From NCBI GenBank assembly GCA_964354495.1, contig CAYHAA010000003.1, positions 70,507-102,506 on the forward strand: 32,000 bases of DNA, written 5' to 3'. The notes below the pieces were generated by a model. That model searched no databases, had not been told where the DNA came from, and worked only from the letters and a program-made list of their open reading frames with translations. The stretch comes from an uncultured archaeon. GTDB lineage: Archaea > Asgardarchaeota > Thorarchaeia > Thorarchaeales > Thorarchaeaceae. Below are positions 4,821 to 21,440 of this stretch, piece by piece (the stretch's first letter is position 1; every line of letters begins with the position of its first letter). The position numbers and the translations under genes were made by a program.

Positions 4821-6077
4821 TCACTCACGAAGGGGAGAATCTGGCCAGCCTCCAGCATTCCACATGGTTGTTATGACGGGATGAAGAAGAACTGCTATGT
4901 TGTCGTCATAGTCTTGGAGCAGGACCTCCGGAAATAGTAGACTAGCTTGAACGATGCCTTCGAAAGGAAGTGTGTCACTCCTGTATGAAGTGATAGCTTC
5001 TCCGGTTCCAATACGATATCCAAGTTTACAGCCCTTTACTCTTAACATACTAATCATGATGAGTATAGGGGGGTTCACTCCAATAGTTTGCAGTAGCTTG
5101 AGATAGCTCGGGATGTATTGAAGAACTAATTCTTCAATATCCTCTCCAATGATGATTGTTTCCTTAAGGTATCTCAACACCCGTAATGCTTCAATACTAC
5201 CATTTCGAAAGAACTGCGTGTATGCATTGGCAATGTGCCTATTGCCGATGAACGTTCCTGGGCTTCCTCCCAAACTCCATCGAAGATATCCATCGAGGTT
5301 GTAGAGATAGGTAGAACCTCCCAGCCTCATTGGCTCAAGTAATTCTTCTCTGGAAACCACTTTTTCAAGTTCAAAGGATTGGGCAGGGGTGAATGCATCT
5401 AGAGGCACGAGGTGAACGACAATCAACGGTCCATCATCAATGAGTAGTGGTGCTCTGTCCTCCAAGATAGCCTCTATCCGTTCTGCCCTAAAATCTCTAA
5501 TCTTGTCCACGATAGATTCAGAGGCCAAGAATGCTCTTCGCAGATCGTGAACATCAAGCTGATATTTCCCTCTCGAGTCTCTTGAATAGAATTTGTCATG
5601 GCTGCTAAACGTGACTCTATGAGGAGCCGCCCAGCTCCTCGGGATTCTAATGACAATTGCAAATCCTGTTGAACTGAGCCTTACTTCTCCAATCTCTATA
5701 TTATGAATCCGAGGACTGATACCATCTCGTATCTTCTGTTCAAGCTGCAAGATGACTGCATCGGGATTGGTAAGGATTAAGGGAGTAAGACTCACAGGAA
5801 TACCTTTGTTCTCATTCATCCCAAAGACCAGATGCCCTCCAGAAGCATTTGCAAAGGATGACACATCGCTCAGGAGCTCTATCGATCCTGGTCTGTCGTT
5901 GCTATGCAGCTCTTTCTTGTAATCAATCAACTTTGTTTCTGAGTCTTGATGCTCGATCAGCTCCAAGAGGTCTCCCTCTGTTATTTCATTAATTGGCCTG
6001 TGACGAATATGCATACTACCTTGCTCCATTCTTTGTTTTTCTATCTTACATTGAAACATAAAGAAGCCCGAATGCAT
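4821..6077 (-). CDS. Schlafen/AlbA_2-domain protein with uncharacterised C-terminal domain (likely start ATG 6014)
   Basis: ETKLIDYKKEL...ELLSDVSSFANASGGHLVFGMNE is the AlbA_2 core; later IVIRIPRS..APH...FYSR. Confidence 0.85.
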   Translation of the reverse strand: MHSGFFMFQCKIEKQRMEQGSMHIRHRPINEITEGDLLELIEHQDSETKLIDYKKELHSNDRPGSIELLSDVSSFANASGGHLVFGMNENKGIPVSLTPLILTNPDAVILQLEQKIRDGISPRIHNIEIGEVRLSSTGFAIVIRIPRSWAAPHRVTFSSHDKFYSRDSRGKYQLDVHDLRRAFLASESIVDKIRDFRAERIEAILEDRAPLLIDDGPLIVVHLVPLDAFTPAQSFELEKVVSREELLEPMRLGGSTYLYNLDGYLRWSLGGSPGTFIGNRHIANAYTQFFRNGSIEALRVLRYLKETIIIGEDIEELVLQYIPSYLKLLQTIGVNPPILIMISMLRVKGCKLGYRIGTGEAITSYRSDTLPFEGIVQASLLFPEVLLQDYDDNIAVLLHPVITTMWNAGGWPDSPLRE

Positions 6078-6118: not shown

Positions 6119-6325
6119 GTGACACAAAATTCCATTTTGAATAAGCTTCGAACTCCTGGATTTGATATCGAAGAAGTTTCACACATTCCGGGCAAAGTAG
6201 AAGACGCACTCGTAATAGAGAGTGGTGAACTTGTACGTTGGTTCTATCTAATCCCCCAAGAAGAACTTTCAAAAGAATGTGAAAAGGAAATGAATGAACT
6301 TGCAAAGAAACTCAGTGATGGATAG
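6119..6325 (+). CDS. Hypothetical small protein or gene fragment
   Basis: 68-codon ORF with GTG start filling the gap before the tRNA; no motif. Confidence 0.35.
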   Translation: MTQNSILNKLRTPGFDIEEVSHIPGKVEDALVIESGELVRWFYLIPQEELSKECEKEMNELAKKLSDG

Positions 6326-6379
6326 CTAGGATTGTTCCGAAACCTCTATAACCGAAAAACCTGCAGACTCGAACGATTT

Positions 6380-6487
6380 GGGCCGATTGCTCAGCCAGGT
6401 AGAGCGGCAGGCTCTTAACTTGTAGAGCATGGGAATTCTCCCTTGTTCGAGGAGTGGTCGCGGGTTCAAATCCCGCTCGGCCCGCCA
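6380..6487 (+). tRNA. tRNA-Lys(CTT) with a 31-nt intron at a non-canonical position (variable-loop boundary) and encoded CCA
   Basis: Acceptor GGGCCGA/TCGGCCC, D-arm GCTC/GAGC, anticodon stem GCAGG/CTTGT with loop CT-CTT-AA (anticodon 6414-6416), T-arm GCGGG-TTCAAAT-CCCGC, G73 and CCA; 31 extra nt between 6424 and 6456. Confidence 0.9.
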
Positions 6488-6530
6488 TCTTCATTTTGAT
6501 AGACCAAATCATCCTGCTGAGCCACCAGCC

Positions 6531-6600
6531 GATCATTGTTAGTTGGAACAGCGTTGACACAAAGGTCAAGCTGACCGTCCAGGAACGGCACTGGACACTT
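6531..6600 (-). ncRNA. Putative omega/reRNA scaffold 3' part overlapping the tnpB stop
   Basis: Hairpins GTCCAG/CTGGAC (6577-6596) and GGTCA/TGACC (6564-6576), alternative TTGAC/GTCAA pairing, GTCAA at 6558-6554; position matches known TnpB reRNA overlap; boundaries uncertain. Confidence 0.4.
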
Positions 6601-8704
6601 TCTTTTGGACATGAATGATGTTACGTGATGCGTTCACATCTGCATGGAAATGCTCATCACATCTCTCACAGTAGAAGAATTCACCTGCTCTCATTTCAGA
6701 GATTGAGAGTTCATCGGAAACTCGGATACCAATCTCACCGCACTGATGACAGGTCTGAGATGTCAAGGCAGGGTTCACAGCCCACACACCTCCATAACTA
6801 TGACCGAGACTTCGTCGCATGTAACGTACTGTTTCAAAGATCTTCGAAAAGAGATTGGCTGAAAGGCTCCATGACAGATTACTAAGGCCAGACGGAGCAG
6901 AGTAGTTCTTCAAGTTCTCAAAGACGACAGTCTTGACTTCATGCTCCTCACAGAACCAGACCAATCGTGATGCAACCTGTCGGGCGATTTCTCTGTCAAT
7001 CCTTCGAATCCTATCCCATACCGCATCATACTCTCTTCGTTTCTTGAGCAAATGAGAAGGATGACCCAAGTTAGGATGTTTCTTATCCCAGTTATTTTGC
7101 ATCCTGACTATTTTGGACTGTAGCCACTTTGTATCCTCGAGTAGGAGAATGCGCTTCTTCAGTAGCTGATCCATCTCTATGAGTTCATCGACATATGTTT
7201 CACCTTTCTGTACAGATACTGCAATTGGTACCCGGAGGCCCCTGTCAGCACCTGCCCGCCGGTGATAGTTTGTCTTGCCAAGCGCAGTTTCTATGACCTC
7301 GTAAGTGGGCGGTAGGAACGGAAGATAGAGAACAGCCTTGTGCCCACGAAGTACAAGCTGTGGAGGCTTGCATCTTCTAGAATTCCTTAGTTCTCCCCTT
7401 CGCACTTCTAGTAGTCTTAACTCCTCGGGATCTACGTCTTTCCTGCATTTGCGTAGTCTGAGTTGATGGGTGATATGGTGATATTCAATGGTGTTCATTA
7501 GTTGTTGATGCATATCACTGAACTTGGCAGCTCGAAACCGGAGTTGCTTTGCTCGCTGGTGTTGTCCATCTCTCTCAGCTCTGTCTGCCTTCTGCAAGTC
7601 CTTCTGTACTGCTCTTGGGAACCAGTTGAGGAACCGAAAGCCAAGTGTCTTGGTCCTGTAGGGAGAATCAGTGTGCCTTGCTCCTTCAATGGGTTCAGGA
7701 GGTTTCAAGAACAATAGAATCTCGTTCTTACGATCTGTGTCCCTTTCGATACTGTACCAGTACCCCTGGCCAATATCGCTCTCGGACCCAGCTGAGAAGT
7801 CCTCTGAGAAGGAGAGCATCTTTGGCACTGTGAACGGGTACCCATCTGTAGACCACTTAGCCAAAGTAGTCTTGACAGTAGGCACGACTAGACCAGGATT
7901 CTGTACGAGTAGTTCCTTTACTCGCACCCGCTGGCTCTTCCTGAATCGAAGAGGTTCTCCCTGTTCAGTGAGAATGACCTCATCCAATAGGCGACGAAGT
8001 TGTTTGAGGACGGACACAACGTAGTAGTAGTTCTTGCCATTGGTCCTGATTGCTGAACATTCCCTTCGGATTGTTGTTATCAGCGAAGAGGAGATGTATT
8101 TGTTCTTCAGGAGTCTCAGGACCAGCGTTTCATCTCCAAGGAGAACTGAAAGAGATGTAGCCATCAGCTGTCTTCTCCTCCAGTCAGACAGAATCACTCG
8201 TGCCGCCTCTTCCAAGGCATTACGGTACATTCTCTCAAAGCAGATGCTCTCAATCTCCTCGTTGTCCCGGTATCTGAGATATCCGATTTTCTTCAAAAGG
8301 TCGTACCCTTTTCCTCGGTGTTCAGATAGCTGTCTGCCAACTGACTCAGCCCGCTCATCGGACTCATAGACCCTTTCAAGGACCATGTTCACGAGTCGGA
8401 CATAGACTGTAAAATGCTCTCCAAGACGGGACACATCGATATCCCGGATTTTTCGACCTGTTTGTGATTCCCCCTGAGCTCTGGCTATTGTACTGAGCAT
8501 AGCCTCAGGTCCTCTTCCCTTTCCCTGCCGTTGTACGGTTCGTTCCACAGAGTTGAGAGTGAATGACTCGGTGAGATACCTAAGCCCAGTCTTTGGCGTT
8601 CCCGATGAACAGGATATAAATTTGTCATCCATTGTCTGTTGCTGTTCAGTCAGGGACTGAGTCTGCTCCCGGGGACGACGCCGGGCTCTTGATTCCTTAA
8701 TCAT
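6566..8704 (-). CDS. tnpB: Oversized TnpB/Cas12-like RNA-guided endonuclease (RuvC plus Zn finger), 712 aa
   Basis: RuvC-I RAGAD487RG, RuvC-II VVFE596NL, Zn finger CHQC...CERC, RuvC-III HAD689VNASRNI; GGTGA RBS at 8708-8712. Confidence 0.88.
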   Translation of the reverse strand: MIKESRARRRPREQTQSLTEQQQTMDDKFISCSSGTPKTGLRYLTESFTLNSVERTVQRQGKGRGPEAMLSTIARAQGESQTGRKIRDIDVSRLGEHFTVYVRLVNMVLERVYESDERAESVGRQLSEHRGKGYDLLKKIGYLRYRDNEEIESICFERMYRNALEEAARVILSDWRRRQLMATSLSVLLGDETLVLRLLKNKYISSSLITTIRRECSAIRTNGKNYYYVVSVLKQLRRLLDEVILTEQGEPLRFRKSQRVRVKELLVQNPGLVVPTVKTTLAKWSTDGYPFTVPKMLSFSEDFSAGSESDIGQGYWYSIERDTDRKNEILLFLKPPEPIEGARHTDSPYRTKTLGFRFLNWFPRAVQKDLQKADRAERDGQHQRAKQLRFRAAKFSDMHQQLMNTIEYHHITHQLRLRKCRKDVDPEELRLLEVRRGELRNSRRCKPPQLVLRGHKAVLYLPFLPPTYEVIETALGKTNYHRRAGADRGLRVPIAVSVQKGETYVDELIEMDQLLKKRILLLEDTKWLQSKIVRMQNNWDKKHPNLGHPSHLLKKRREYDAVWDRIRRIDREIARQVASRLVWFCEEHEVKTVVFENLKNYSAPSGLSNLSWSLSANLFSKIFETVRYMRRSLGHSYGGVWAVNPALTSQTCHQCGEIGIRVSDELSISEMRAGEFFYCERCDEHFHADVNASRNIIHVQKKVSSAVPGRSA

Positions 8705-8734
8705 CGGTCACCACTCTCAATTCTAGGTACAGAA

Positions 8735-8758
8735 TTATATCCTCATATTAGGATATAA
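8735..8758. promoter_or_regulatory. 24-bp near-perfect palindrome overlapping the tnpB TATA box (operator candidate)
   Basis: TTATATCCT-C-ATAT-T-AGGATATAA has one mismatched pair; minus strand reads TTTATAT over 8760-8754. Confidence 0.55.
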
Positions 8759-8852
8759 ATTTACCAAGATTACTATGAAGAATAGAACAGAGTGGTTTTA
8801 AAGTGGCACATTCTGGCTCATGAGGCGAAATAGAAAATAGACACTACTCAAT

Positions 8853-8868
8853 AAAATTCTTATATATA
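8853..8868 (+). promoter_or_regulatory. BRE/TATA-like promoter of the giant gene
   Basis: AAAA-TTC-TTATATATA about 26-34 nt upstream of ATG 8894, the usual archaeal spacing for a short leader. Confidence 0.55.
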
Positions 8869-8893
8869 ATAAGCAACATTCAATCTCATACCA

Positions 8894-11800
8894 ATGAAAA
8901 CAGCGAGAGTCCCCGAGAATCCCGGGAAGGTTCTTACCAAGGCCCTGCAACTGGGTCTTACATCCACAGCATACCTGACCAGATCCAGAGTGACCAAGGC
9001 AACAAGACACTTCTACTGGGGAGGGAAAAGGCGCAAGGGAATAAGACAGATGATGAAGGATGCCCTCTCAGACTACCAGAGATCTGTCAACGAGAGAAGA
9101 CCCAACGCAAAGCACCTTCAGAGATATGAGAACAACATTCGCCGCAACCACAACAAGGTGGTCCTGAACACATCGGTTGCCTATGGGAACACCGAGGAGA
9201 AGAGAAGAAGACGGGATGAGAACAGGAAGTACATCAACACTCTCGCTGACTATTTCGGAGCAAAGATAAGGAATACCGGTGCAACGAAGTTCCAATTCCA
9301 AGTACCAGCTAAGCTGCGCACCGCGGGCAGAGCTGTCGAGCGGTACTATCCGGGTAACTCACGGATCCCTGAGTATGTTCCCCGTCACGTTGCTCCTGAA
9401 CTAGACTTCGTGGATATGATTCGAAGTCATGGCATCGAGCTTGCCCGCCAGTGTATGAAGTACTCAGTTCCGCTGAGAGATGCAAAACGATACTTGGACA
9501 GACTCATTGATGAACTGATTCCCTATCTTGAGCATGTCTATACAGAGGGTCGGGCGGGAAAGAAGGGATTCATTCATGGCGGAGTGAGGGTGCTCCGCAA
9601 GATTACGGCTGAGATGAGGACTCTATATGGAGGAGTCAACGGTCACCCGCAATCAATCACAGCTGAGATCTCAGAAGAGATCGATAAGAGCGCAGAGAGG
9701 AGTATGGCACTTGATGATTCTCAATTAACAGAAACAAATCGAGTAGAAACGGTCGTTGACGATGAAGAGGATAGGTCTGAGCCGGAAACGGTCGAGGAAG
9801 AAGACCTTGACACTTTCTTTAATCGCCTCTTGGACCATTGCGACATTGTTACTAATCCACATTGGAAAGTGCATGTGGAGCGAGTGAGGTCACTAGTTGA
9901 GCAGGGAATTCTGACACGTAAAGATGCAGAGTATTTCCTGAGCCTCATTCTCGAAGATAGCCGGAAGATGGGATCAGCCTTTCATGATTTCATTGCCAAT
10001 TCGGAGTTCACAGTCCGCCCATTCTCGCTTCTTGGCCCTATCAAGCATGGTGATGAGATGGTCACCGAAAACACGGAGTTATTATTCACCTGTGAAACCA
10101 GTGTGGCGGATGGTCGAGGGAGAATCGACATTCTTGTCTTTCGAAGAAAGCATCTAGCGCGGGTCGACGAATCACGACCCGTTGCTATCTGGGAACCGTG
10201 CATCCTCATCGAGATAAAGACGAAGAACTTCTACGGACTTGACCTCTATGCAATAACCACCAAGTCGAAAGACATGAGGAAGAGAGTCGTTGAACCAGTT
10301 CTAGAGAAGAGAAAATCCGAGAGACCTGAATGGGAAGCAATCGTCAGTTCCACTCCAACTGCATATGAAAAGAAACAGCTAGAGTCCTATGAGAGAGCTG
10401 TACTCTCAGACTATAGAAAGTATGTGAGAAACGATTCGGGTCCACCAGAGAAACTGATGAAAGGAGTACTTGTTGTTGACTTAGCGGAGAACTGGGAAGT
10501 CCTACGAGCCAACATCAAAGATCTAATTCTTCAGGCGCACCATTCTTCCCAAGAGATGACTCTTCCAAAGAGGCAACACTTCTATCCAACCTTGAAGAGC
10601 AAAGAAACCAGAATGGGACTTGTTCTCTTCAGTGATTATGAAGATAGAAGCACCGCACCAGTCGAGAATGTTGTAGAGTTCAATCCGTTCTCACATCCCG
10701 GAGGTCGCGATGACAACCGAGAGTTCATCCTGTATCTTGGTGTGTCAGACAAAGGCTCTCCTTCCATTTCGGCAGCAGAGATTGCAGCTAGGTGGCACGG
10801 ATTGAAGTTCATCCATGAGAGAACCAAAGGAAAGAACAGAGATATTCTTTGGCTGGATTTCACTGGTGAATACAGGGATGCTAGACTCAGAAAAAAGAGC
10901 TTGCGACTCACTCTTCAATCGAAAAGCATTCAGCACCTGGTGAGAGAAAGAATCATTTTTGTTGACATGTCGGGAGAGATGTCCTCGTACCTTCATGAGA
11001 GAGTGTCCATCGAGGCTCCGGGCCAAAAGGTCCGGGAGAGTTTCCATGGAAAGAGAAGACCATTCATCGTTGTAACGGGCTTCGATAAGTTGAGAGAGAG
11101 CATTCCTAGAGAGAAGATGTCCCTTCTTGATGAATGCATAGTCTGGTTAATTGAACTCGTTCCACCACACTCATCAGTACTGTGGTTCGATAAGCCCGTA
11201 CCGACCAGCTGGACAAGTCAGGAGTATGACACTCGAGGCATAGCACCCTTTTACACAAGCAGCCCATGGAAACGCGTTGTAGATGAGATTGTTTACAATG
11301 TACCAATGGCTCCCAGGAGGTGGGGGTCCTATGTTCCTGCAGAAGATGACATCAGATGGATTGTGATTGAGAGCAAATTCAGTCTTGACTATGGTACAGA
11401 ACTGGTTCCACCTCTATACATGTGGGGAGAACGGTTCAGACCCGATGGTAATCGTGAGGACAATATTGACAGGCAACAGGTATTCTATCTTAGATCTACT
11501 TACTCGTCAACAAGACAACGCAATCTAAGAAAATATAGCAAAGAGGATTTCAACAGCGTATTGGAGCTCATCCCGCATCTCAATAGATTCTATGAGAATC
11601 CAGATTTGAATGACATTGAGAGAGTGTATGACAGTGAGGAAGTAAAGATGCTGAGGGAGGAGCTCTCAGAGATTCCATCGAGTCCAGCCCCAATCCTTTC
11701 GAGAGTGGTCTTCACACCCAATCAGTCCTTGACTTCAGTTGAGAAAGACAGTCGAGTGAAATTGCTCATGCCGCTATCCATGATTAACGCTGCCAGAGAA

Positions 11801-14296
11801 TATCGACAGACCAGACTCTTGAATGAGCCCAAAAGGGAAACGACAAGGCCGCCTCATTTGGGATTACTCAGGTTTCATGGTGCTGACGTGTTCACGGTTG
11901 TGAGAAATGAACTTGGTGGATTAAGACAGGTTGCGAAAGTCATAGAGAAACGTCATGGGGGGAACAAGGAGTGGAGGGAATTCCTTGATTCATTGAGGCT
12001 GCTTCTAAAGCCGGAAACAATAGGTGACTATAATCAACATACTGTTCTGAACATGCTGCGGTCGGTTCATGTCTTCCTTGAAACCCACGAGTTGAGCAGG
12101 GGTGTTTGGGAAGCCATCAAACCACGCAGGACATGGATTCCGGATGGACTGTCGGAAGAACAGCAGACGAACCTGAGGATTCTCCTAGACAGAGATCCAG
12201 ATCTGTTGCTTTTGGTAGGCAACCATCTCTTTCTTCTTCTTCTAGTATCGCTGCATGAAGCCGAAGCCATGGACCTGTCAACAGGGTTCATTGAAAGACT
12301 CTGGAACTACCTTCTTCCCTTTCAAATGGCAGGGATAGGATTTGAGCCAGAGTATCATTCACAGCATAATACTGGCAAATCATTCCTGCACAGAACTAGA
12401 CTCATCACAAGACTGGCATCTTGGGCAAGGAGTCTAAAACTACTCCAAGCAAATCAGAACGTGAATGAGATTCTCTTTGGGCGCGCGTACCTTGTTGGAA
12501 ACGATAGAGGTGGATTGCCCTCGCACATCTTACTATCTTTTCAGACAACCCTAGGAAGTCATGAAATGAGCATGGCCTTCTTGAAAGCGCCATCGGAGGT
12601 CAAGGGCTCAGTTCATGAAGTCCTTGGGGGTCTGTGCCAAAAAAGACCATTCTGGGGCACGAGTGACCTATTGATTCTCAGAAAGCTAGCAGAGAGTGTG
12701 AGCCCCAGTGTTGGTACTGATATCATGATTGCTTCTCAAAACGGAACTCGTGGCCTTTGGACCTGTGAAAATAGTTCAGACAAATGGATTCCTATTGGAG
12801 GATTCGACTACTATTCGCGGAAACGCGAGATGGCCACACTTCTAATGTCAGCTGTTCTTCGTGAGGACGCGACTCTTCAAGAAGTGCCATGCGAGAGCAT
12901 CAGAACGACGCCTCAGAATCTGAAAGAGTCTATCGACATTGGTCTGCAGCTCATCTCAGCGGCATTCCGGATGTGCATTCCTGTGAGATGTCACGTGTCC
13001 TTGGACTACAATGAGAAGATGTTCAGAATTTCATTTGTGAAGGCTAAGAGGAAGAAAGAAGTGGGAGAACTTCTGATCAAGAAGACCGCAGATATACTTG
13101 AGATTCTGAGAAGACCAGACATTTCGTGTGAACCTGTCGTTGTTGAGGGGAAACAATGCATCTGGAACAGATTCGACGATATCGAGTACGACGAAGATGT
13201 CAAAATCCTGCGACCTTATGTAATTCGAAACAACCCCTTCAAGGTTTATTCGCTAGCATTGCCACAGAATGCAGAGACACTTTGTTCAATAGAAAGAGGG
13301 CGTGTTTTGAGAACGAAGATTCTGCATGACCCGTACGTATGTCCTTTGAGAAGCGTGCGTCTGGAAAATCTCATTCAGCAGCCCATCAAGTCGGCATCTG
13401 TTATTGATTATCTGAGGAACATGGATGGTCATCCTGGGCAACCTGACCCATTGTTCAATCAGTCTATACATAGACATGGAACTTGCTGGAGATTATCATT
13501 CGACTCTGATGATGATCTTCCTGCACAGATCGAGGAACTTGATAAGGTGAAGTTCGGAGGTCCTGCTCTTGCAACCTTCTTAGAGACAGGTGTTGTGTTC
13601 TATTCAACCCCCAACGGAGATTGGGTTTCTCACGAGATACAAGTTCCTGAATCGAGAGATTTGCCCAAGGAGTTTAGGGAATCCATACACCTCATGAGAT
13701 GGAGAAAGGACAACGCTATATATCCTGGCTTCTACCTACTTGACGGCTGGATTCCCGAGATTCAGATCTACAAGGACAGGGTTGATTTCAGACTCGTATC
13801 GAAACTCACACTTCAAGAGAAGACACACTCGATCTTTGAATCTAATGCTGAAATGCTAGAAAAAGAAAGACTGCGATTACTGCTGAAGAGAGGAATGAGT
13901 AGGGTCATCGAACTAGGAGGCTTCTCCGGGAATAGTACTATGAAGCAGTTAGCCAACAGCGAGATTGCAGGTCAACTCGCTCATATTGATAATGAGAGTG
14001 GCATAGAGTTGCAGTATGATTCGGTTGGGGTTGCTGAAGATAGGGTTCGAGAGAAAGTCATCGTGGCAAATTTCGTTACTCATGATGATGAGTATGTGAC
14101 TATTCAGGTAACACAACAGATATTGGTGTACAAGGACTGGACTGCAATGGCAGGGGGCGTTGACTTCGATACAGTAGAAGTAGAAATCAACGATAGGCTA
14201 CAGGGGTATAACGTCAATGATGAACACATTAACAGAATCGCAGAAAGAGCGAGAGAATTGTTAGAAGAAATGGGTGTGGTGTTCTTTGAACCATGA
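8894..14296 (+). CDS. Giant 1800-aa protein with Cas4/RecB-like PD-(D/E)xK nuclease domain and a degenerate RecA-like region
   Basis: G360SAFH, GRID412IL, IE440IK442T, Q495LESY499; then GVSDKGS (~616), ILWLD655FTGEY, FIVVTGFD (~724); basic N-terminus and acidic linker. Confidence 0.8.
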   Translation: MKTARVPENPGKVLTKALQLGLTSTAYLTRSRVTKATRHFYWGGKRRKGIRQMMKDALSDYQRSVNERRPNAKHLQRYENNIRRNHNKVVLNTSVAYGNTEEKRRRRDENRKYINTLADYFGAKIRNTGATKFQFQVPAKLRTAGRAVERYYPGNSRIPEYVPRHVAPELDFVDMIRSHGIELARQCMKYSVPLRDAKRYLDRLIDELIPYLEHVYTEGRAGKKGFIHGGVRVLRKITAEMRTLYGGVNGHPQSITAEISEEIDKSAERSMALDDSQLTETNRVETVVDDEEDRSEPETVEEEDLDTFFNRLLDHCDIVTNPHWKVHVERVRSLVEQGILTRKDAEYFLSLILEDSRKMGSAFHDFIANSEFTVRPFSLLGPIKHGDEMVTENTELLFTCETSVADGRGRIDILVFRRKHLARVDESRPVAIWEPCILIEIKTKNFYGLDLYAITTKSKDMRKRVVEPVLEKRKSERPEWEAIVSSTPTAYEKKQLESYERAVLSDYRKYVRNDSGPPEKLMKGVLVVDLAENWEVLRANIKDLILQAHHSSQEMTLPKRQHFYPTLKSKETRMGLVLFSDYEDRSTAPVENVVEFNPFSHPGGRDDNREFILYLGVSDKGSPSISAAEIAARWHGLKFIHERTKGKNRDILWLDFTGEYRDARLRKKSLRLTLQSKSIQHLVRERIIFVDMSGEMSSYLHERVSIEAPGQKVRESFHGKRRPFIVVTGFDKLRESIPREKMSLLDECIVWLIELVPPHSSVLWFDKPVPTSWTSQEYDTRGIAPFYTSSPWKRVVDEIVYNVPMAPRRWGSYVPAEDDIRWIVIESKFSLDYGTELVPPLYMWGERFRPDGNREDNIDRQQVFYLRSTYSSTRQRNLRKYSKEDFNSVLELIPHLNRFYENPDLNDIERVYDSEEVKMLREELSEIPSSPAPILSRVVFTPNQSLTSVEKDSRVKLLMPLSMINAAREYRQTRLLNEPKRETTRPPHLGLLRFHGADVFTVVRNELGGLRQVAKVIEKRHGGNKEWREFLDSLRLLLKPETIGDYNQHTVLNMLRSVHVFLETHELSRGVWEAIKPRRTWIPDGLSEEQQTNLRILLDRDPDLLLLVGNHLFLLLLVSLHEAEAMDLSTGFIERLWNYLLPFQMAGIGFEPEYHSQHNTGKSFLHRTRLITRLASWARSLKLLQANQNVNEILFGRAYLVGNDRGGLPSHILLSFQTTLGSHEMSMAFLKAPSEVKGSVHEVLGGLCQKRPFWGTSDLLILRKLAESVSPSVGTDIMIASQNGTRGLWTCENSSDKWIPIGGFDYYSRKREMATLLMSAVLREDATLQEVPCESIRTTPQNLKESIDIGLQLISAAFRMCIPVRCHVSLDYNEKMFRISFVKAKRKKEVGELLIKKTADILEILRRPDISCEPVVVEGKQCIWNRFDDIEYDEDVKILRPYVIRNNPFKVYSLALPQNAETLCSIERGRVLRTKILHDPYVCPLRSVRLENLIQQPIKSASVIDYLRNMDGHPGQPDPLFNQSIHRHGTCWRLSFDSDDDLPAQIEELDKVKFGGPALATFLETGVVFYSTPNGDWVSHEIQVPESRDLPKEFRESIHLMRWRKDNAIYPGFYLLDGWIPEIQIYKDRVDFRLVSKLTLQEKTHSIFESNAEMLEKERLRLLLKRGMSRVIELGGFSGNSTMKQLANSEIAGQLAHIDNESGIELQYDSVGVAEDRVREKVIVANFVTHDDEYVTIQVTQQILVYKDWTAMAGGVDFDTVEVEINDRLQGYNVNDEHINRIAERARELLEEMGVVFFEP

Positions 14297-14311
14297 AACT
14301 ATTGCATGGCC

Positions 14312-14410
14312 CCACCAGCCCACAGACCGCCCCTTGCCTGTTCTGCGTTCATAGAGATTGCGGTGTTACAGAGGCCCATGGCTGTCACAAGGCGTATAGT
14401 AGAAGCACAT
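14312..14410 (+). repeat. Dispersed direct repeat copy C1
   Basis: 52-nt core 14317-14368 AGCCCACAGACCGCCCCTTGCCTGTTCTGCGTTCATAGAGATTGCGGTGTTA; distal TGTCACAAG...GAAGCA shared with C4. Confidence 0.9.
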
Positions 14411-15188: not shown

Positions 15189-18100
15189 ATGTACTTGATT
15201 ATGAAGTTTTATTCTGTGCATGTTCTAATCCTGATACTAGCTCTTGCCACTGTGATGGACTCGAATAACGCAACTGCTAGTTCTGGATTCACCAGTCCGT
15301 CGATGGGTTTCTCTTTAATCGATAGCAACGCAACTGAAGCTGGAATCACGCGAAACGTCCAGACAGGCTCCATGGCAATAATGAACAAAACGCAACTGGA
15401 GCAGAGCTCATATGTCGGCGGAGATATGGTCAAGGGATTTGAAGCACTGAACTACTCTACGACGAGTATCAATGTATTGATACCCAAACTATCATGTTTT
15501 GAAGAGATTTTTTCTGTATCCTCACGGTACTCCGTTAATCCTGTCTCATCACCTATAGATTTCTATAGTTCACTGAATAGCAGCAGCATCGCCGTTGTAA
15601 TGGAGTCTGCCTTAGCAGGACTTACTGATATGGAGCTGTCCGAGTTTGTCACAAATCTCGTTCGATGGGCAGAACAAGGGAATCTCCTAGTCCTAAATGA
15701 CATGAGGTCGCTTGATGAGGATATATGTAGAATCCTTGGAATTAGCTTCCTTGAAACTAAAGTGAGCAATACCTCAACATATCAGGTGAAATTCAAATCA
15801 CCCAGTCCGTTGACACACAATAGAGTTTACAGGGAACTTGAGTTGGATGTGATTCCGACCTGCTTTTTAGTAGTCAATCCTCAGATATCGGAAGCTGTTG
15901 CATCCATTGAAGAGCAAGAACTGCCGTGTGTTGTCTTATCAACACTAGGTAAGGGATTTGTCTTCACTATCGGATTCAACGCGGGATCCATTAAGATACC
16001 AGGATTGCCCACTTTTCGGGGAGTCTTGGAAAATCTATTCGAAATGTACGGGAGTGTACACTTCTACCTCTGCACGGACAGCTTATCTGTTGCAAACCCC
16101 TCTTCACCGCATCTTCACGCAATGCAAGGAAATGAGTCGATACTAGTTGAGATGAGAGAAGTGATTTCCTCTCTGTCTTCGCTTGGTTTCAACGCCTTTG
16201 GGAGTAATCTACTATATGCCGACCACAACGGAGGATACTTTGGCTATGCGTCATTTCATGGGGGATTGCAGTCCTTCGTGCGAATATTTTCTAGTTTTAT
16301 CAGCATAGCATATGATGATACACCTCATATTATTCTATCGAATACAACAAGGATACCCTCTTCTTGCTCCGATGTCTTTTCCAAGATTGATCCTCTGCCT
16401 GTCACTACATTATTTTGGCCTGCTGGCTGGAATCCTCCCGATGTGCCATACTACCATCTTGCACCAACAAAACAGTACTCTCATGACATGGGTAGTGACC
16501 TATGGACGCCTCAGAGTGTAGAAGAGGTCATCAGAGCCGATGACGCTAGGAACCTCGGACCTGCCGGTGATGGTGTCAAAGTAGTCATGGTAGATACGGG
16601 TTTTTCTCGTAATAGAATTAGTGACCCTAACAACCCTGACTATCCCACTGAGCTTGGTTACCATCCATATTACGAGGAATACTGGCGCTACAAAGATCTT
16701 ATGGAATTCCAGTACGCTGGTCATTGGGCTGGAGGCTACAATCCGGACGAGGATACCTATGGCCATGGCACTGGAATAGCATCCAACCTGTTTGCAGTTT
16801 CACCAGATATAGAATTTCACTTTGTCCCGTACTGGGACACAGTGGATGCATTCAGAGTAATACTCGAGGATATTGAGCCGGACGTAGTCACATGTAGCTG
16901 GGGTTGGGCAGGGGAGGATATTCCTGCAATCCCAGCTCTGCAAGATCAGATTAGACAGCTCGCAGAGAATGGGGTAATTGTTGTATTCTCAGGAGGAAAT
17001 GGAGCATACGATAGAACTTGGCCCTCCAGTGAACCGTGTGTTGTATCGGTCGGTGGTGCTTACGTTGACTCTAGTGGGGGCCTCGAAGCATCCAACTATG
17101 CTTCTAGTGGCAGAGAGCCGGCCTTCAACGGCAGAGTTGTCCCTGATGTCTGTGGGATTGTTGGACAACAGCCCTATGGGGTGTTAATCGAGATGCCCAC
17201 TGAGCCAGAGTCAACAATGGATCAAAAGCTTAGTCAGGAGTGTCTTGACGGAACCGGTTATTCGGACGGATGGTGCGTTTTCAGCGGTACGTCGTCAGCA
17301 GCTCCACAAGTCGCAGGTCTAGCTGCTTTGATGAAGGAACTGGAACCCGACTTAAATGTGGGTAGGTTCAAGCATATAGTAATGACAACCTGTACTGATA
17401 TAGTCACTGGACAGAGCTATGATGAGGATGTAGCAGAAAAAGGGTTCGATAAAGCAACTGGAGCAGGCCTGATTGATTGCTATCGTGCGATAAAGACCAT
17501 GCTAGAGTATTCCTCGTCTGGTATTTACGAAGCCAAGACGGAGCCGGATGGGAAATTCATGAACTTCTACTCCTTTACCGGCCCTCATGGACCCAGTTAT
17601 CACGCCGACACAGCTGGAAGTACTCAGTCTGGATACTATTTCTTTGGCTATCTCGTATCACGCGATGGTGCGGTCATGACTCGCCAATACGATGCGTCTG
17701 CAGGATGGTTTCGGATAGCAGGATGGTTCCGCCAATACGACACCTTCACTCCCTCTTTGCAGCCAGGTAGGAGATATCTGGATATGTATGTCCTGTCTGT
17801 AGATGGGAACCAACTAATCAAAGCGGTTAGAATCTTAGACCATGATGATGGCACCAACTGGATATACGTTAATGCTATCGTAACAGACCTTCCAGAGTAT
17901 GGTATGGTTCGAGTGGCCTTCGGAAGATATGACTGTTGGTCGACTGACTGGCAACTCACCGCTGAGTGGGCCAATGTCAATATCTATTCCTATGATCAAT
18001 GGTGGCCGGACACAATCTACGATGGTAGATACTATAGATGGGGATCATCAATTGCACCTGAATCTCATTTGGGAAACACCTACAGAATAGACACAATAGG

Positions 18101-18482
18101 TAGCAGTGAGTATAGCTACTACTTCTTTGGCTATGCATCAGACTATAATCCGTATCTAGGACCTAACACCAAGATATCGATTGCTGGTTGGTTCAGGCAG
18201 GATGATACGTTCGATTCAGATTTGCAGGAAGGTCGAAGATACCTTGACCTCTATGTCATTGACCGCCTGTCTCAACCATGGGCGGTGAAGGCAACATTCA
18301 GAATTCTGGACTACTATGATGGCACAGATTGGGTGCACAGACGATTGGTCTTCCAGATGCCGAGTAATCTCCCTGCAGACTATTATTATATTGCTATTGG
18401 GAGATATGACTGCTGGATGTACGACTGGCACCTAACAGGAGAGTGGAACAATATCCAACTTGTCGTAGGTCCGTCCTTCTAG
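15189..18482 (+). CDS. Secreted S8 (subtilisin-like) serine protease with long N-terminal extension and duplicated C-terminal domain
   Basis: Signal peptide; triad VVMVDTG, YGHGTGIA, FSGTSSAAPQVAG; two ~130-aa C-terminal repeats. Confidence 0.9.
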   Translation: MYLIMKFYSVHVLILILALATVMDSNNATASSGFTSPSMGFSLIDSNATEAGITRNVQTGSMAIMNKTQLEQSSYVGGDMVKGFEALNYSTTSINVLIPKLSCFEEIFSVSSRYSVNPVSSPIDFYSSLNSSSIAVVMESALAGLTDMELSEFVTNLVRWAEQGNLLVLNDMRSLDEDICRILGISFLETKVSNTSTYQVKFKSPSPLTHNRVYRELELDVIPTCFLVVNPQISEAVASIEEQELPCVVLSTLGKGFVFTIGFNAGSIKIPGLPTFRGVLENLFEMYGSVHFYLCTDSLSVANPSSPHLHAMQGNESILVEMREVISSLSSLGFNAFGSNLLYADHNGGYFGYASFHGGLQSFVRIFSSFISIAYDDTPHIILSNTTRIPSSCSDVFSKIDPLPVTTLFWPAGWNPPDVPYYHLAPTKQYSHDMGSDLWTPQSVEEVIRADDARNLGPAGDGVKVVMVDTGFSRNRISDPNNPDYPTELGYHPYYEEYWRYKDLMEFQYAGHWAGGYNPDEDTYGHGTGIASNLFAVSPDIEFHFVPYWDTVDAFRVILEDIEPDVVTCSWGWAGEDIPAIPALQDQIRQLAENGVIVVFSGGNGAYDRTWPSSEPCVVSVGGAYVDSSGGLEASNYASSGREPAFNGRVVPDVCGIVGQQPYGVLIEMPTEPESTMDQKLSQECLDGTGYSDGWCVFSGTSSAAPQVAGLAALMKELEPDLNVGRFKHIVMTTCTDIVTGQSYDEDVAEKGFDKATGAGLIDCYRAIKTMLEYSSSGIYEAKTEPDGKFMNFYSFTGPHGPSYHADTAGSTQSGYYFFGYLVSRDGAVMTRQYDASAGWFRIAGWFRQYDTFTPSLQPGRRYLDMYVLSVDGNQLIKAVRILDHDDGTNWIYVNAIVTDLPEYGMVRVAFGRYDCWSTDWQLTAEWANVNIYSYDQWWPDTIYDGRYYRWGSSIAPESHLGNTYRIDTIGSSEYSYYFFGYASDYNPYLGPNTKISIAGWFRQDDTFDSDLQEGRRYLDLYVIDRLSQPWAVKATFRILDYYDGTDWVHRRLVFQMPSNLPADYYYIAIGRYDCWMYDWHLTGEWNNIQLVVGPSF

Positions 18483-18707: not shown

Positions 18708-19502
18708 ATGAAAGAAAGTCAAAATCCATCCACTATTCAACAAAGACTACCGCGAGAAGCTCAAAAATTCATACAAGAAATCAGACCATATTGTTCTTCG
18801 ATTGTTCTTGGAGGGTCAAGAGCAAAAAGTGTTGAATCAGAGGGAAGTGATATTGATTTATGTATAATATGTCCAAACAATCAAGGGAAGAGTAAGGTTG
18901 TTTCCTTCTTTCGCGGGATAGGCTCAGAGAAACCACAGCAAAGAGTTCTAGTTGATGCCAAGATTTTCTCAGAGGAGGAGTTTGTGACAGTAATACAAGG
19001 CACGCAGAATGCCTTCTGGTACACATTCATCAGTAATGGTTTGGTCATTCATGGTGCTGAAGTAAATGTAACCTTGTTTTCGCATCAATTTCGTAATACT
19101 GTGTGGGCAGCGATTGATGAATTGAGAGAATCGATTGACCTTATTGAAAAGAATGTATTCCCAGAAATCATAGGTTATAAAGTCTATTCAGCAATATCCA
19201 CTTGTTACACCATTGAATGTCTTCATTACTGCAGACCATTCTCTCAGATTGAAAGAGCAGAATTAATCAGCCAAGTTCTAGGAGATCAGAAACAAGTAAT
19301 GAAGACGCTCTATGATTGTATTAGAAAACGAATGAGAATGGAATTAGCAACGCAGGTCTTGAGCACTGATTTCAAACTAACAAAAACCGGACATTGTAGA
19401 ACTATAGTAGATTCAAACAACTTTGATAGGGCCAAACTCGAGCAATCGATTCAGCATGCCCTTCACCATGCTGAAGAACTTTATCATATACTAGGTGATT
19501 GA
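18708..19502 (+). CDS. Nucleotidyltransferase (MNT, Pol-beta superfamily) with C-terminal helical, possibly HEPN-like, domain
   Basis: IVLGGSRA......SDIDL motif, downstream VDAKI strand; helical C-terminal half. Confidence 0.8.
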   Translation: MKESQNPSTIQQRLPREAQKFIQEIRPYCSSIVLGGSRAKSVESEGSDIDLCIICPNNQGKSKVVSFFRGIGSEKPQQRVLVDAKIFSEEEFVTVIQGTQNAFWYTFISNGLVIHGAEVNVTLFSHQFRNTVWAAIDELRESIDLIEKNVFPEIIGYKVYSAISTCYTIECLHYCRPFSQIERAELISQVLGDQKQVMKTLYDCIRKRMRMELATQVLSTDFKLTKTGHCRTIVDSNNFDRAKLEQSIQHALHHAEELYHILGD

Positions 19503-19613: not shown

Positions 19614-21440
19614 CTACGATGCCGTTAGAAGTATTTCAACATCATAGTAGTCCCCGGACTGACTGCATACTACTATTCGACCATAATAGGTGCCAGTGTA
19701 ATCTGCCCAGTATCCAGTATTTCGATTATTACCAGGATAAGAGGAGGCTACTAATTCCAGGTCCTCATCATAGATCTCAACTTTCAGGATTAGATCGGGG
19801 TCTCCATGTGCACTCACCCACATGAAATAATCTTCTTCACAGTTGAACTTGTACCAGTCTGCACCATCATCACTGTCACCAATCCATAGAGGTTCGTTGT
19901 ATCGAGTGTAGGATGACTCATACACATAGTTGAGTACTATAGGTGCATCCAGACTATTCGAAGATATGTCAGATGTAAGGAAATTATACTCGTCTTGTGC
20001 ATCGACTCTTCCAGCTCCATAGGAGCTATCCAAGCCTGGAGTTGAGTCTTCAGGCATATCAGTCGCAGCTGCCATCAGAAGGTTCTTCACATATGATTGA
20101 TTGTTCTCTGTTTGGCTTAGGTTACAATCATAATCAAGCCAGAGTGCACACAATCCTGCAACAAAAGCTGTTGCCATTGAAGTACCTGACATTTTAATAT
20201 AACCATCATTGTCATCGTAGTCTGCAGCTGTAATGTTAGTTCCAGGTGCAAGAATATCAGGTTTGATTCTATCATCGTCGCAAGGGCCGCGACCAGAATC
20301 TGAAGCCAGCTCCCAGCCATCGCCACTCTCATCAGGATCTACTGCATTTCCCGCGGTGATTACATACTTTCCAGTTCCTGGCTGAGCGATTGTGTCACTA
20401 GAAGGTCCCTCATTACCTGCAGCAACAACAACTACAAGTCCATATGTAGCAACAAGAGTGTCAGCAGCCTGAGCCAATGTGCCATATTCACCATAAGGAG
20501 TGAAACCCCATGAACAACTTACGATGTCTATCCCATATTCAGATTTGTTACCAGCAACCCAATCAAAGGCAGCAAGTGCATCTGACAATAAAATGGTTGC
20601 GTCATACTTTATTATCTTTACACCAACTAGAGCTGCTTCACTGGCAACTCCTCGATATGAACTGTTTGCATCACCTGACCCAGCAGCAATACTTGCACAG
20701 TGAGTACCATGTCCAAGATCATCGTAGGGTTCAGTGTGGATGGTTCCACTAATAATAGTGGAGGAATCATAGGGCACAGTATATTTTTCAAGCATTGTTG
20801 GGACAGAACTCGTGACCGAATCGTCACCGACCAAATCAACCCATCCAATAACCTTTCCACCATCAAGGTCGTAATGGCTATCACTAATTCCTGAATCAAG
20901 TATTGCAATAACGATATCATCCTTGCTATAACCTGTACTATTAGAATCTTTGTCCCCATCTAAGTCAGGATATTGAGATTGAAGCCAATCAACATCGGTG
21001 CGGTTCCTAGCTGAATCCATACAGACCGCATTTTCTTTAATATCAAGATCGATAAAACTCACGAATGAAAGCGTAGCAAGGTCGTATATCTGACTCGATG
21101 TGAGTCGTGCACTAAACCCTCCTAGATATTTCCAGATTCTAAGTAGTTGAACCTCACCCAAATTAGATTTAACTGAAGCTGAATAATCAATATTCGGGTT
21201 TTTACACATGACAACAACATCGAGTTTCTCAAATTCTGATATCTGAGATAGTTCAGGTGTTAGATGAGTACCCATCTTTTCCACTCCTAAAACTGGGTTC
21301 TCACCGGAAAAAACATTTGTCGGATGAATTTGAGCTAATGTCGGATAGCTCAAGATCAACATTAAAAGGATAAATCCACAATAGTGTATCCAATTCTTCT
21401 TTTTCGGCTTCTTGTTTGGTTTTGTTATCTCATTCTGCAT
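19614..21440 (-). CDS. Secreted S8 serine protease (AprX-like) with I9-type propeptide and PPC-like C-terminus
   Basis: IAILDSG, PYDDLGHGTHCASIAAG, VVVVAAGNEG, MSGTSMATAFVAG; C-terminal DGADWYKF. Confidence 0.92.
   Translation of the reverse strand: MQNEITKPNKKPKKKNWIHYCGFILLMLILSYPTLAQIHPTNVFSGENPVLGVEKMGTHLTPELSQISEFEKLDVVVMCKNPNIDYSASVKSNLGEVQLLRIWKYLGGFSARLTSSQIYDLATLSFVSFIDLDIKENAVCMDSARNRTDVDWLQSQYPDLDGDKDSNSTGYSKDDIVIAILDSGISDSHYDLDGGKVIGWVDLVGDDSVTSSVPTMLEKYTVPYDSSTIISGTIHTEPYDDLGHGTHCASIAAGSGDANSSYRGVASEAALVGVKIIKYDATILLSDALAAFDWVAGNKSEYGIDIVSCSWGFTPYGEYGTLAQAADTLVATYGLVVVVAAGNEGPSSDTIAQPGTGKYVITAGNAVDPDESGDGWELASDSGRGPCDDDRIKPDILAPGTNITAADYDDNDGYIKMSGTSMATAFVAGLCALWLDYDCNLSQTENNQSYVKNLLMAAATDMPEDSTPGLDSSYGAGRVDAQDEYNFLTSDISSNSLDAPIVLNYVYESSYTRYNEPLWIGDSDDGADWYKFNCEEDYFMWVSAHGDPDLILKVEIYDEDLELVASSYPGNNRNTGYWADYTGTYYGRIVVCSQSGDYYDVEILLTAS

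Follow-up and report, generated by a model that had tools for sequence, protein, structure and literature searches.

The DNA considered here is a stretch of 32,000 nt, further referred to as the window, from an uncultured Thorarchaeaceae archaeon (Asgardarchaeota; GCA_964354495.1, contig CAYHAA010000003.1, forward-strand 70,507-102,506). It contains two head-to-head genes, of which one (P0001) encodes a giant protein of 1800 aa, very likely a member of the aCas1 family, and the other (P0002) a TnpB-like protein of 712 aa. With a probability of roughly 60%, the giant protein is the integrase or transposase of a compact two-gene element of ~7.8 kb, in which the other gene encodes an RNA-guided TnpB nuclease. 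The unit displays several signs of mobility: it is multi-copy, patchily distributed and restricted to certain lineages, its copies have differing flanks, and short-to-medium repeats of host-gene ends are found at its borders. The anatomy of the giant protein, its pairing with TnpB, its distribution and the border repeats are observed directly; the chemistry would, by analogy, resemble that of casposases, of TnsA in Tn7 and Cas4, and of IS200/IS605 elements.

The gene of the giant protein (8894..14296, + strand) is an open reading frame (ORF) free of stops, and its start at 8894 is accepted because the N-terminus is conserved among homologues. A word-indexed search yields 49 full-length relatives of 1650-1944 aa with 31-74% identity, and every homologue among them with a named source is Candidatus Thorarchaeota. 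When 1.84 billion representatives are searched exhaustively with a profile of residues 1-910, 185 clusters (50% identity) are obtained. Among the matches listed (150 of 185 clusters), only members of the giant-protein family or fragments thereof are present, and canonical Cas1, Cas4 and RecA are not found. The whole protein has no match in Pfam, NCBIfam, PADLOC or the PDB sequences. Conservation spans the full length of the protein except for two linkers (261-320 and 901-920), and motif residues were compared in 34 sequences with 21-78% identity. Two AlphaFold2 models were made, each from 34-sequence alignments, with a pLDDT of 83 and a pTM of 0.80 for residues 1-910, and a pLDDT of 84 and a pTM of 0.76 for residues 911-1800. 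A structural search of the first model against representatives returns two sets of matches, belonging to a Cas1-like and a RecA-like domain. The protein comprises, in this order, a Cas1-like catalytic domain, an acidic linker, a RecB/Cas4-type PD-(D/E)xK nuclease, a RecA-like domain lacking Walker A and a C-terminal region of 890 residues.

The N-terminal domain (residues 1-265, 8894..9688, + strand) is, as judged from the model, probable but not proven to be Cas1-like. Residues 1-232 of the model structurally match the catalytic domain of Cas1, with matches that begin at Cas1 residues ~81-112 and run to the Cas1 C-terminus only. Both the model and these matches indicate that the N-terminal β-sandwich of Cas1 is absent and that the giant protein opens directly with the helical domain. 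This domain is the most conserved portion of the protein. E79, D171 and D174 are invariant in the 34 sequences and H165 is present in 33 of them; together, these residues form a candidate integrase active site. At the sequence level, the domain has no Pfam or NCBIfam match at E up to 0.1, the Cas1 profile PF01867 retrieves nothing across the whole genome at E up to 10, and a PDB profile search with residues 1-265 results in chance-level matches only. Comparison by hhalign with 22 Asgard Cas1 proteins failed for a shallow family alignment (probability 0.3%), while a family alignment of 118 sequences gives a weak match (probability 2.2%, P 0.021). The latter puts E79 onto the catalytic Glu motif of Cas1 and D171/D174/R177 onto its LDLxExFR motif. 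The original prediction, made from the sequence alone, had described this part as an Arg-rich N-terminus followed by an acidic linker; the linker is indeed present, but the description of the N-terminus was incomplete, as it models as a Cas1-type integrase domain. DEAD-helicase-Cas1 fusions of other Asgard genomes were considered as a bridge to Cas1 and rejected, being unrelated in sequence to the giant protein. These fusions of 1320-1360 aa are of the ‘ARAMP’ kind (PMC8730458) and adjoin RAMP genes (L058:7035-11126 and L060:4970-8941, both on the − strand).

The linker (residues ~266-319, 9689..9850, + strand) is acidic and variable, has the lowest conservation of the protein and is modeled with low confidence (pLDDT <50 at 272-300). 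It precedes the RecB/Cas4-like PD-(D/E)xK nuclease core (residues ~320-560, 9851..10573, + strand), with D412, E440, K442, Q495 and Y499. The set of G..H, D, ExK and QxxxY motifs that had been noticed in residues 360-499 holds across the family: G360, H364, D412, K442, Q495 and Y499 are invariant in all 34 sequences, and position 440 is occupied by E in 25 and by D in nine of them. In the AlphaFold2 model, the motifs sit on an α-β-β-β-α-β core. The language-model neighbors of the nuclease region are PD-(D/E)xK families, among which Cas4, with scores of 0.79-0.88 that are below the threshold and serve as leads only. A weak hhalign match to 22 Asgard Cas4 proteins (P 0.064) has G..H, D and ExK in register. 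As to the four-cysteine Fe-S cluster of Cas4, residues 305-600 contain no invariant or near-invariant cysteine. A PDB profile search with the same residues gives chance-level matches only, and the domain has no match in Pfam.

Residues 604-885 (10703..11548, + strand) model as a RecA/RAD51-paralog fold with a RecA core, and an independent Foldseek search has RAD51 paralogs at the top (E 7.5e-5). A RecA-like region with a degenerate Walker motif had been suspected at residues ~610-770, and the model bears this out. The consensus at the Walker A site is TVSG[KR]GSP, in which Ser and Pro replace Lys and Ser/Thr, and there is no GK[ST]; an invariant Walker-B-like Asp (D655) is retained. Because of the degenerate Walker A, the domain is, as far as the sequence can tell, most likely not an ATPase. 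The conserved C-terminal region (residues 911-1800, 11624..14296, + strand) is confidently folded in its model. As the original prediction had remarked, a large C-terminal stretch has no assignment: these ~890 residues lack a match in Pfam or the PDB sequences and a clear fold match. A cluster of invariant or near-invariant residues, H1478, C1483, H1528 and C1531, could constitute a putative metal site.

The TnpB/Cas12-like partner (6566..8704, − strand) has D487, E596, D689 and CxxC...CxxC intact, the catalytic residues being read from an alignment of 13 TnpB partners. It matches Pfam Cas12f1-like_TNB (1e-11), PADLOC Cas12u3 (9e-18) and NCBIfam guided_TnpB (9e-16, yet below the family cut-off). 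Between the two genes lies a divergent intergenic region of 189 bp (8705..8893), in which two TATA-like boxes are conserved and ACAAGATTA is invariant. The head-to-head arrangement and the exact length of this gap, both reported before, stand, and the spacing is conserved in relatives, with 188-215 bp in six metagenome loci that were drawn from three subgroups of the family. In the genome itself, paralogs of the giant protein (25-50% identity) are encoded at seven or more loci, each with a TnpB-like gene (550-721 aa) divergently upstream. Homologues occurring mostly without TnpB would have spoken against a partnership; all 13 loci, seven of this genome and six from metagenomes, carry the divergent gene. 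On the transcript level, a 167-nt contig (X11) from a sediment metatranscriptome is ~98% identical to tnpB (window 7558-7724), possibly by DNA carry-over.

The identity of the giant-protein family follows from the tails of the tnpB genes. Altae-Tran et al. (2023, PNAS, PMC10691335) distinguish two Asgard groups of aCas1-associated TnpBs, Cas1H-Asgard-1 and -2, and propose aCas1 as a transposase since its loci are often flanked by repeats. They further describe a hypervariable stretch downstream of tnpB, between a conserved T and GTTCACTCA, for which a spacer-like reading is raised as well. Four paralogous loci of this genome (L017-L020) and 12 further ones from relatives show the T...GTTCACTCA signature, and therefore the giant-protein family is very likely the published aCas1. 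The primary description of aCas1 is said to be that of Makarova et al. 2020, CRISPR J. The tnpB tail of the window itself lacks GTTCACTCA and ends in ACAATGATCGG; the window element may represent the second published aCas1-TnpB group. Its kind is here called group A, and group B comprises the tails of L017-L020, L066, L068 and L103-L121. In the column of the RuvC-II glutamate (P0002 residue 596), seven group-A TnpBs have E and six group-B TnpBs have K or T, which reflects either a misalignment or a rearranged catalytic site, of a kind described in PMC10691335.

With a profile of the N-terminal domain, the family is detected in 47 of 301 Asgard genomes, in one to eight copies each. It is present in 43 of 76 genomes of the own family (12 of 24 in the own genus) and in three of 11 of one other family, and elsewhere in none. 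Flanking genes differ at every non-orthologous locus, and other copies reside among housekeeping genes (a pyrimidine-degradation cluster, primase/OGG, MFS). In L066:2671-15148, for example, a group-B element is located amid DHO_dh-like, aminotransferase, CN-hydrolase and amidohydrolase genes, where it apparently splits a pyrimidine-degradation cluster. Decayed copies are found as well. On contig 7 of this genome, G000 (L021:~8340-10520), a fragment of the giant gene (residues ~402-986) abuts a 3′ fragment of tnpB (residues 584-712), as though a deletion had removed the promoter between them together with the 5′ half of each gene. Solo 3′ fragments of tnpB, covering the last ~70-100 codons, are present on G000 contigs 17 (19880-20176), 46, 10 and 18, some with in-frame stops and far from any giant gene. 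In congeners, the 3′ ~230 nt of tnpB is the most widely repeated DNA of the region.

At the borders of the window element, a 9-bp direct repeat, CCACCAGCC, is located on the left at 6522..6530 and on the right at 14312..14320 (both + strand), where analysis of the joint shows it to be followed by an inverted stub of a tRNA-Lys promoter (to ~14372). These are the only two occurrences in 32 kb, against 0.17 expected, and none of 100 shuffles reaches two. When the outer flanks are joined across one copy of the 9-mer, a continuous tRNA-Lys promoter with the first ~21 nt of the tRNA results, 86% identical to the intact gene of a congener. The terminal segment on the TnpB side (6531..6565, − strand) ends in ACAATGATC. 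The end motif of group A is ACAATGAWCGG, and beyond it the sequences are unrelated in every locus. Next to it, an intron-bearing tRNA-Lys(CTT) gene (6380..6487, + strand; Rfam tRNA 54.9 bits, 6380-6484) has its 3′ end facing the tnpB 3′ end. Other assemblies with this ortholog group have retained the tRNA in the same arrangement (L061, L062/G093, G293 and G303). ARAGORN misses this tRNA in the window and in L061, presumably because of the intron.

Longer repeats are found at two other loci. In L018, the tnpB side has an intact tRNA-Gly, whose 3′ half recurs as a 46-nt copy immediately next to the stop codon of the giant gene. In L063, ~60 nt of the OGG 3′ end are repeated with 80% identity, starting directly after the tnpB-side end motif. 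These two repeats are imperfect and the 9-bp repeat of the window is exact. Apart from the family, L097:840-1640 (G116 contig 91) contains a tRNA-Lys(CTT) with two apparent introns, of which the last 25 nt are duplicated ~600 bp downstream, bracketing a small membrane-protein gene; this looks like another integration at tRNA-Lys.

Several observations weigh against an integrase of a mobile element. Firstly, the lengths of the border repeats vary (9, 46 and ~60 nt) and therefore do not point to one particular integration chemistry, and no convincing terminal inverted repeats (TIRs) were found. An 8-nt inverted match in L020, TCACTCAC, was rejected as a terminal repeat because it is at chance level. 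Secondly, the nuclease domain taken alone has no profile or fold match, the fold lists being filled by the other two domains. Thirdly, the ortholog group of the window adjoins one and the same tRNA-Lys in five or more assemblies, with proteins that are only 55-74% identical, which is as compatible with prolonged residence by vertical descent or with domestication as it is with site-specific homing. Contigs of related strains are similar to the window over 6314-14364, and tRNA-Lys promoter sequences mark both limits of this similarity. Together with the shared tRNA-Lys site, this implies that the window copy is old or site-specific, and the tRNA-linked site, more than the element, may be the cause of its variable flanks. 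Lastly, no empty site or excision joint was seen in congeners or strain contigs. Congener tRNA-Lys genes without the element were rejected as empty sites, since they are a different paralog, and Logan contigs (word shares 0.21 or less) contain no joints that skip the element.

If the giant protein is the integrase of the element, its Cas1-like domain would perform strand transfer of the element ends into the target, as casposases do, and the PD-(D/E)xK domain would cut or trim these ends, as Cas4 does with prespacers and TnsA with Tn7. Similar to the inactive RecA folds that are found in Elp456 or XRCC2, the dead RecA-like domain could contribute to assembly or to the binding of DNA, and the C-terminal half may act with it in assembling the complex on DNA. 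The guide of the TnpB omega-RNA would begin right after the ACAATGAWCGG end and read the flanking target. By cutting unoccupied sites, TnpB could cause the element to be retained or homed, as in IS200/IS605.

A tighter connection, in which the giant protein and TnpB are one machine for RNA-guided integration or guide writing, is unlikely but fares best among the alternatives. It could take two forms. Either the complex of TnpB and omega-RNA would pick the target and the Cas1-like domain would insert, resembling a CRISPR-associated transposon (CAST) but independently evolved, or aCas1 would install a short variable segment beside the omega-RNA scaffold as guide, i.e., one-spacer writing. In both cases, the dead RecA-like domain and the C-terminal half would be the coupling parts. 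The strict head-to-head pairing with its conserved spacing is consistent with such a machine, as is the constant tRNA-Lys site of the window ortholog group. In addition, group-B loci possess a variable segment of 9-18 nt between GAACAYAGAAGT and GTTCACTCA, in guide position after a scaffold supported by covariation, and a spacer-like reading is likewise raised in PMC10691335. However, the TnpB of the window keeps D487, E596 and D689, unlike the nuclease-dead Cas12k of CASTs. Orthologous copies moreover share the variable segment (it is the same in L018 and L103, and differs by 1 nt between L105 and L107) and so give no sign of turnover. At 11 of 16 loci, the segment and the sequence following GTTCACTCA pair into a hairpin (with a z of only -0.6 to -2.1), which points to an end structure more than to a free guide.

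Some further features of the group-B tails can be mentioned. The scaffold predicted by RNAalifold around the tnpB stop has compensatory changes in 13 of 19 pairs, and the hairpin across GTTCACTCA appears to have changed in a compensatory manner from locus to locus. Although published as ‘hypervariable’, the segment that precedes GTTCACTCA is semi-conserved and often reads TTCTTGCAG.... In L068:3895-4107 (− strand), the GAAGT...TTCACTCA tail is located inside the 3′ end of the tnpB ORF and not after it.

It is still somewhat less probable that the giant protein is an accessory DNA-processing enzyme, which resects or repairs the break made by TnpB and has no integrase role. An intact RecB-type nuclease and a RecA-like fold are both typical of break processing, and the strict pairing with TnpB agrees with this function too. 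Nevertheless, conservation is highest in the Cas1-like domain, which has invariant acidic residues. The Walker A lysine is absent, which makes ATP-driven strand exchange unlikely, and the unit is multi-copy in different contexts, yet without another candidate transposase. The original prediction had favored a partner that replaces TnpA and processes, resects or mobilises the DNA cut by TnpB. The first half of this proposal agrees with the proposal of PMC10691335 for aCas1-TnpB loci. The second half is not sustained: with the N-terminus modeling as a Cas1-type integrase, the likely role moves from break processing to that of element integrase.

Least probable is a domesticated host or defence module that is now immobile, at least as the window copy: defence-like neighbors (Schlafen/AlbA_2, nucleotidyltransferase, subtilase), a location next to tRNA-Lys that is orthologous among several diverged assemblies and in which both ORFs are intact, and the conservation between strains of block 6314-14364 amid variable flanks are in its favor, but other family members lie amid housekeeping genes, the giant protein has no PADLOC match, and up to eight diverged copies per genome in addition to decayed ones are atypical of a host gene. 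The neighbors in question are a 1097-aa subtilase (15189-18482), a nucleotidyltransferase (18708-19502) and a Schlafen/AlbA_2 protein (4821-6077), a setting that is defence-island-like and specific to the window copy.

CRISPR adaptation has its root in Cas1-family integrases, and type V effectors have theirs in TnpB nucleases. Here, a Cas1-like protein and TnpB are paired without being part of a CRISPR system, and their host belongs to the archaeal lineage that is closest to eukaryotes. The pair itself is not new, because this kind of locus was already predicted in literature; it is a further member of a published kind that was predicted computationally and never bench-tested. What is added are candidate borders of the element, with target joints at the ends of tRNAs and genes, and a domain map. 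The latter places a candidate integrase active site at E79/H165/D171/D174 and the nuclease triad at D412/E440/K442, and includes a dead RecA-like domain as well as a large C-terminal half that is modeled with confidence but has no matches. Altogether, the domain map, borders and joints make an integration assay designable. Should both proteins turn out to be coupled, they would offer a compact natural route to RNA-guided insertion, and RNA-guided DNA insertion may have evolved independently of the CRISPR-associated Tn7 transposons.

The closest known systems are the aCas1-TnpB loci, with which the window shares the Asgard host, a Cas1-like protein adjoining TnpB, border repeats, the proposed transposase role and, in the four paralogous loci, the T...GTTCACTCA tail; the tail of the window's own tnpB, in contrast, ends in ACAATGATCGG. 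Casposons (PMC8464041; casposase structure 6opm) similarly use a Cas1-family integrase as presumed transposase, and some of them carry Cas4-like nucleases. They differ in several respects. The unit described here has two genes, neither of which encodes a family B polymerase, and no TIRs were found in it. Its integrase lacks the N-terminal β domain of Cas1, shares its polypeptide with a nuclease, a RecA-like domain and another 890 residues, and has TnpB as partner, and the repeats measure 9, 46 and ~60 nt instead of 13-15 bp. The insertion of casposons at tRNA genes and gene 3′ ends with target duplications, reportedly described by Beguin in 2016, is comparable to the situation here.

Cas4-Cas1 fusions, noted for type V-B CRISPR adaptation modules in PMC10691335, likewise combine a PD-(D/E)xK domain with QxxxY and a Cas1-type domain in one polypeptide, adjoining a nuclease derived from TnpB. 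In the giant protein, however, the order is reversed, with the Cas1-like domain first, and neither the Cas4 cysteine cluster nor a Pfam match to Cas1 or Cas4 is present. The two-gene unit moreover lacks Cas2, and the window contains no CRISPR array: it has no tandem repeats and Rfam finds only the tRNA there. The inactive RecA folds of XRCC2 and other RAD51 paralogs, Elp4/5/6 and KaiC-like archaeal proteins have only 8-16% sequence identity to the RecA-like domain, which, unlike these, is an internal domain of a multidomain protein. Finally, IS200/IS605 elements differ from the unit by their TnpA, since no Y1 or serine TnpA is encoded in the unit or its immediate neighbors, and by the divergent orientation of the genes, a TnpB of 550-750 aa and a partner of 1600-1950 aa in the family described here. 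What both have in common is a TnpB with an omega-RNA scaffold over its 3′ end, and a sharp element end that is followed by flank-derived sequence in guide position.

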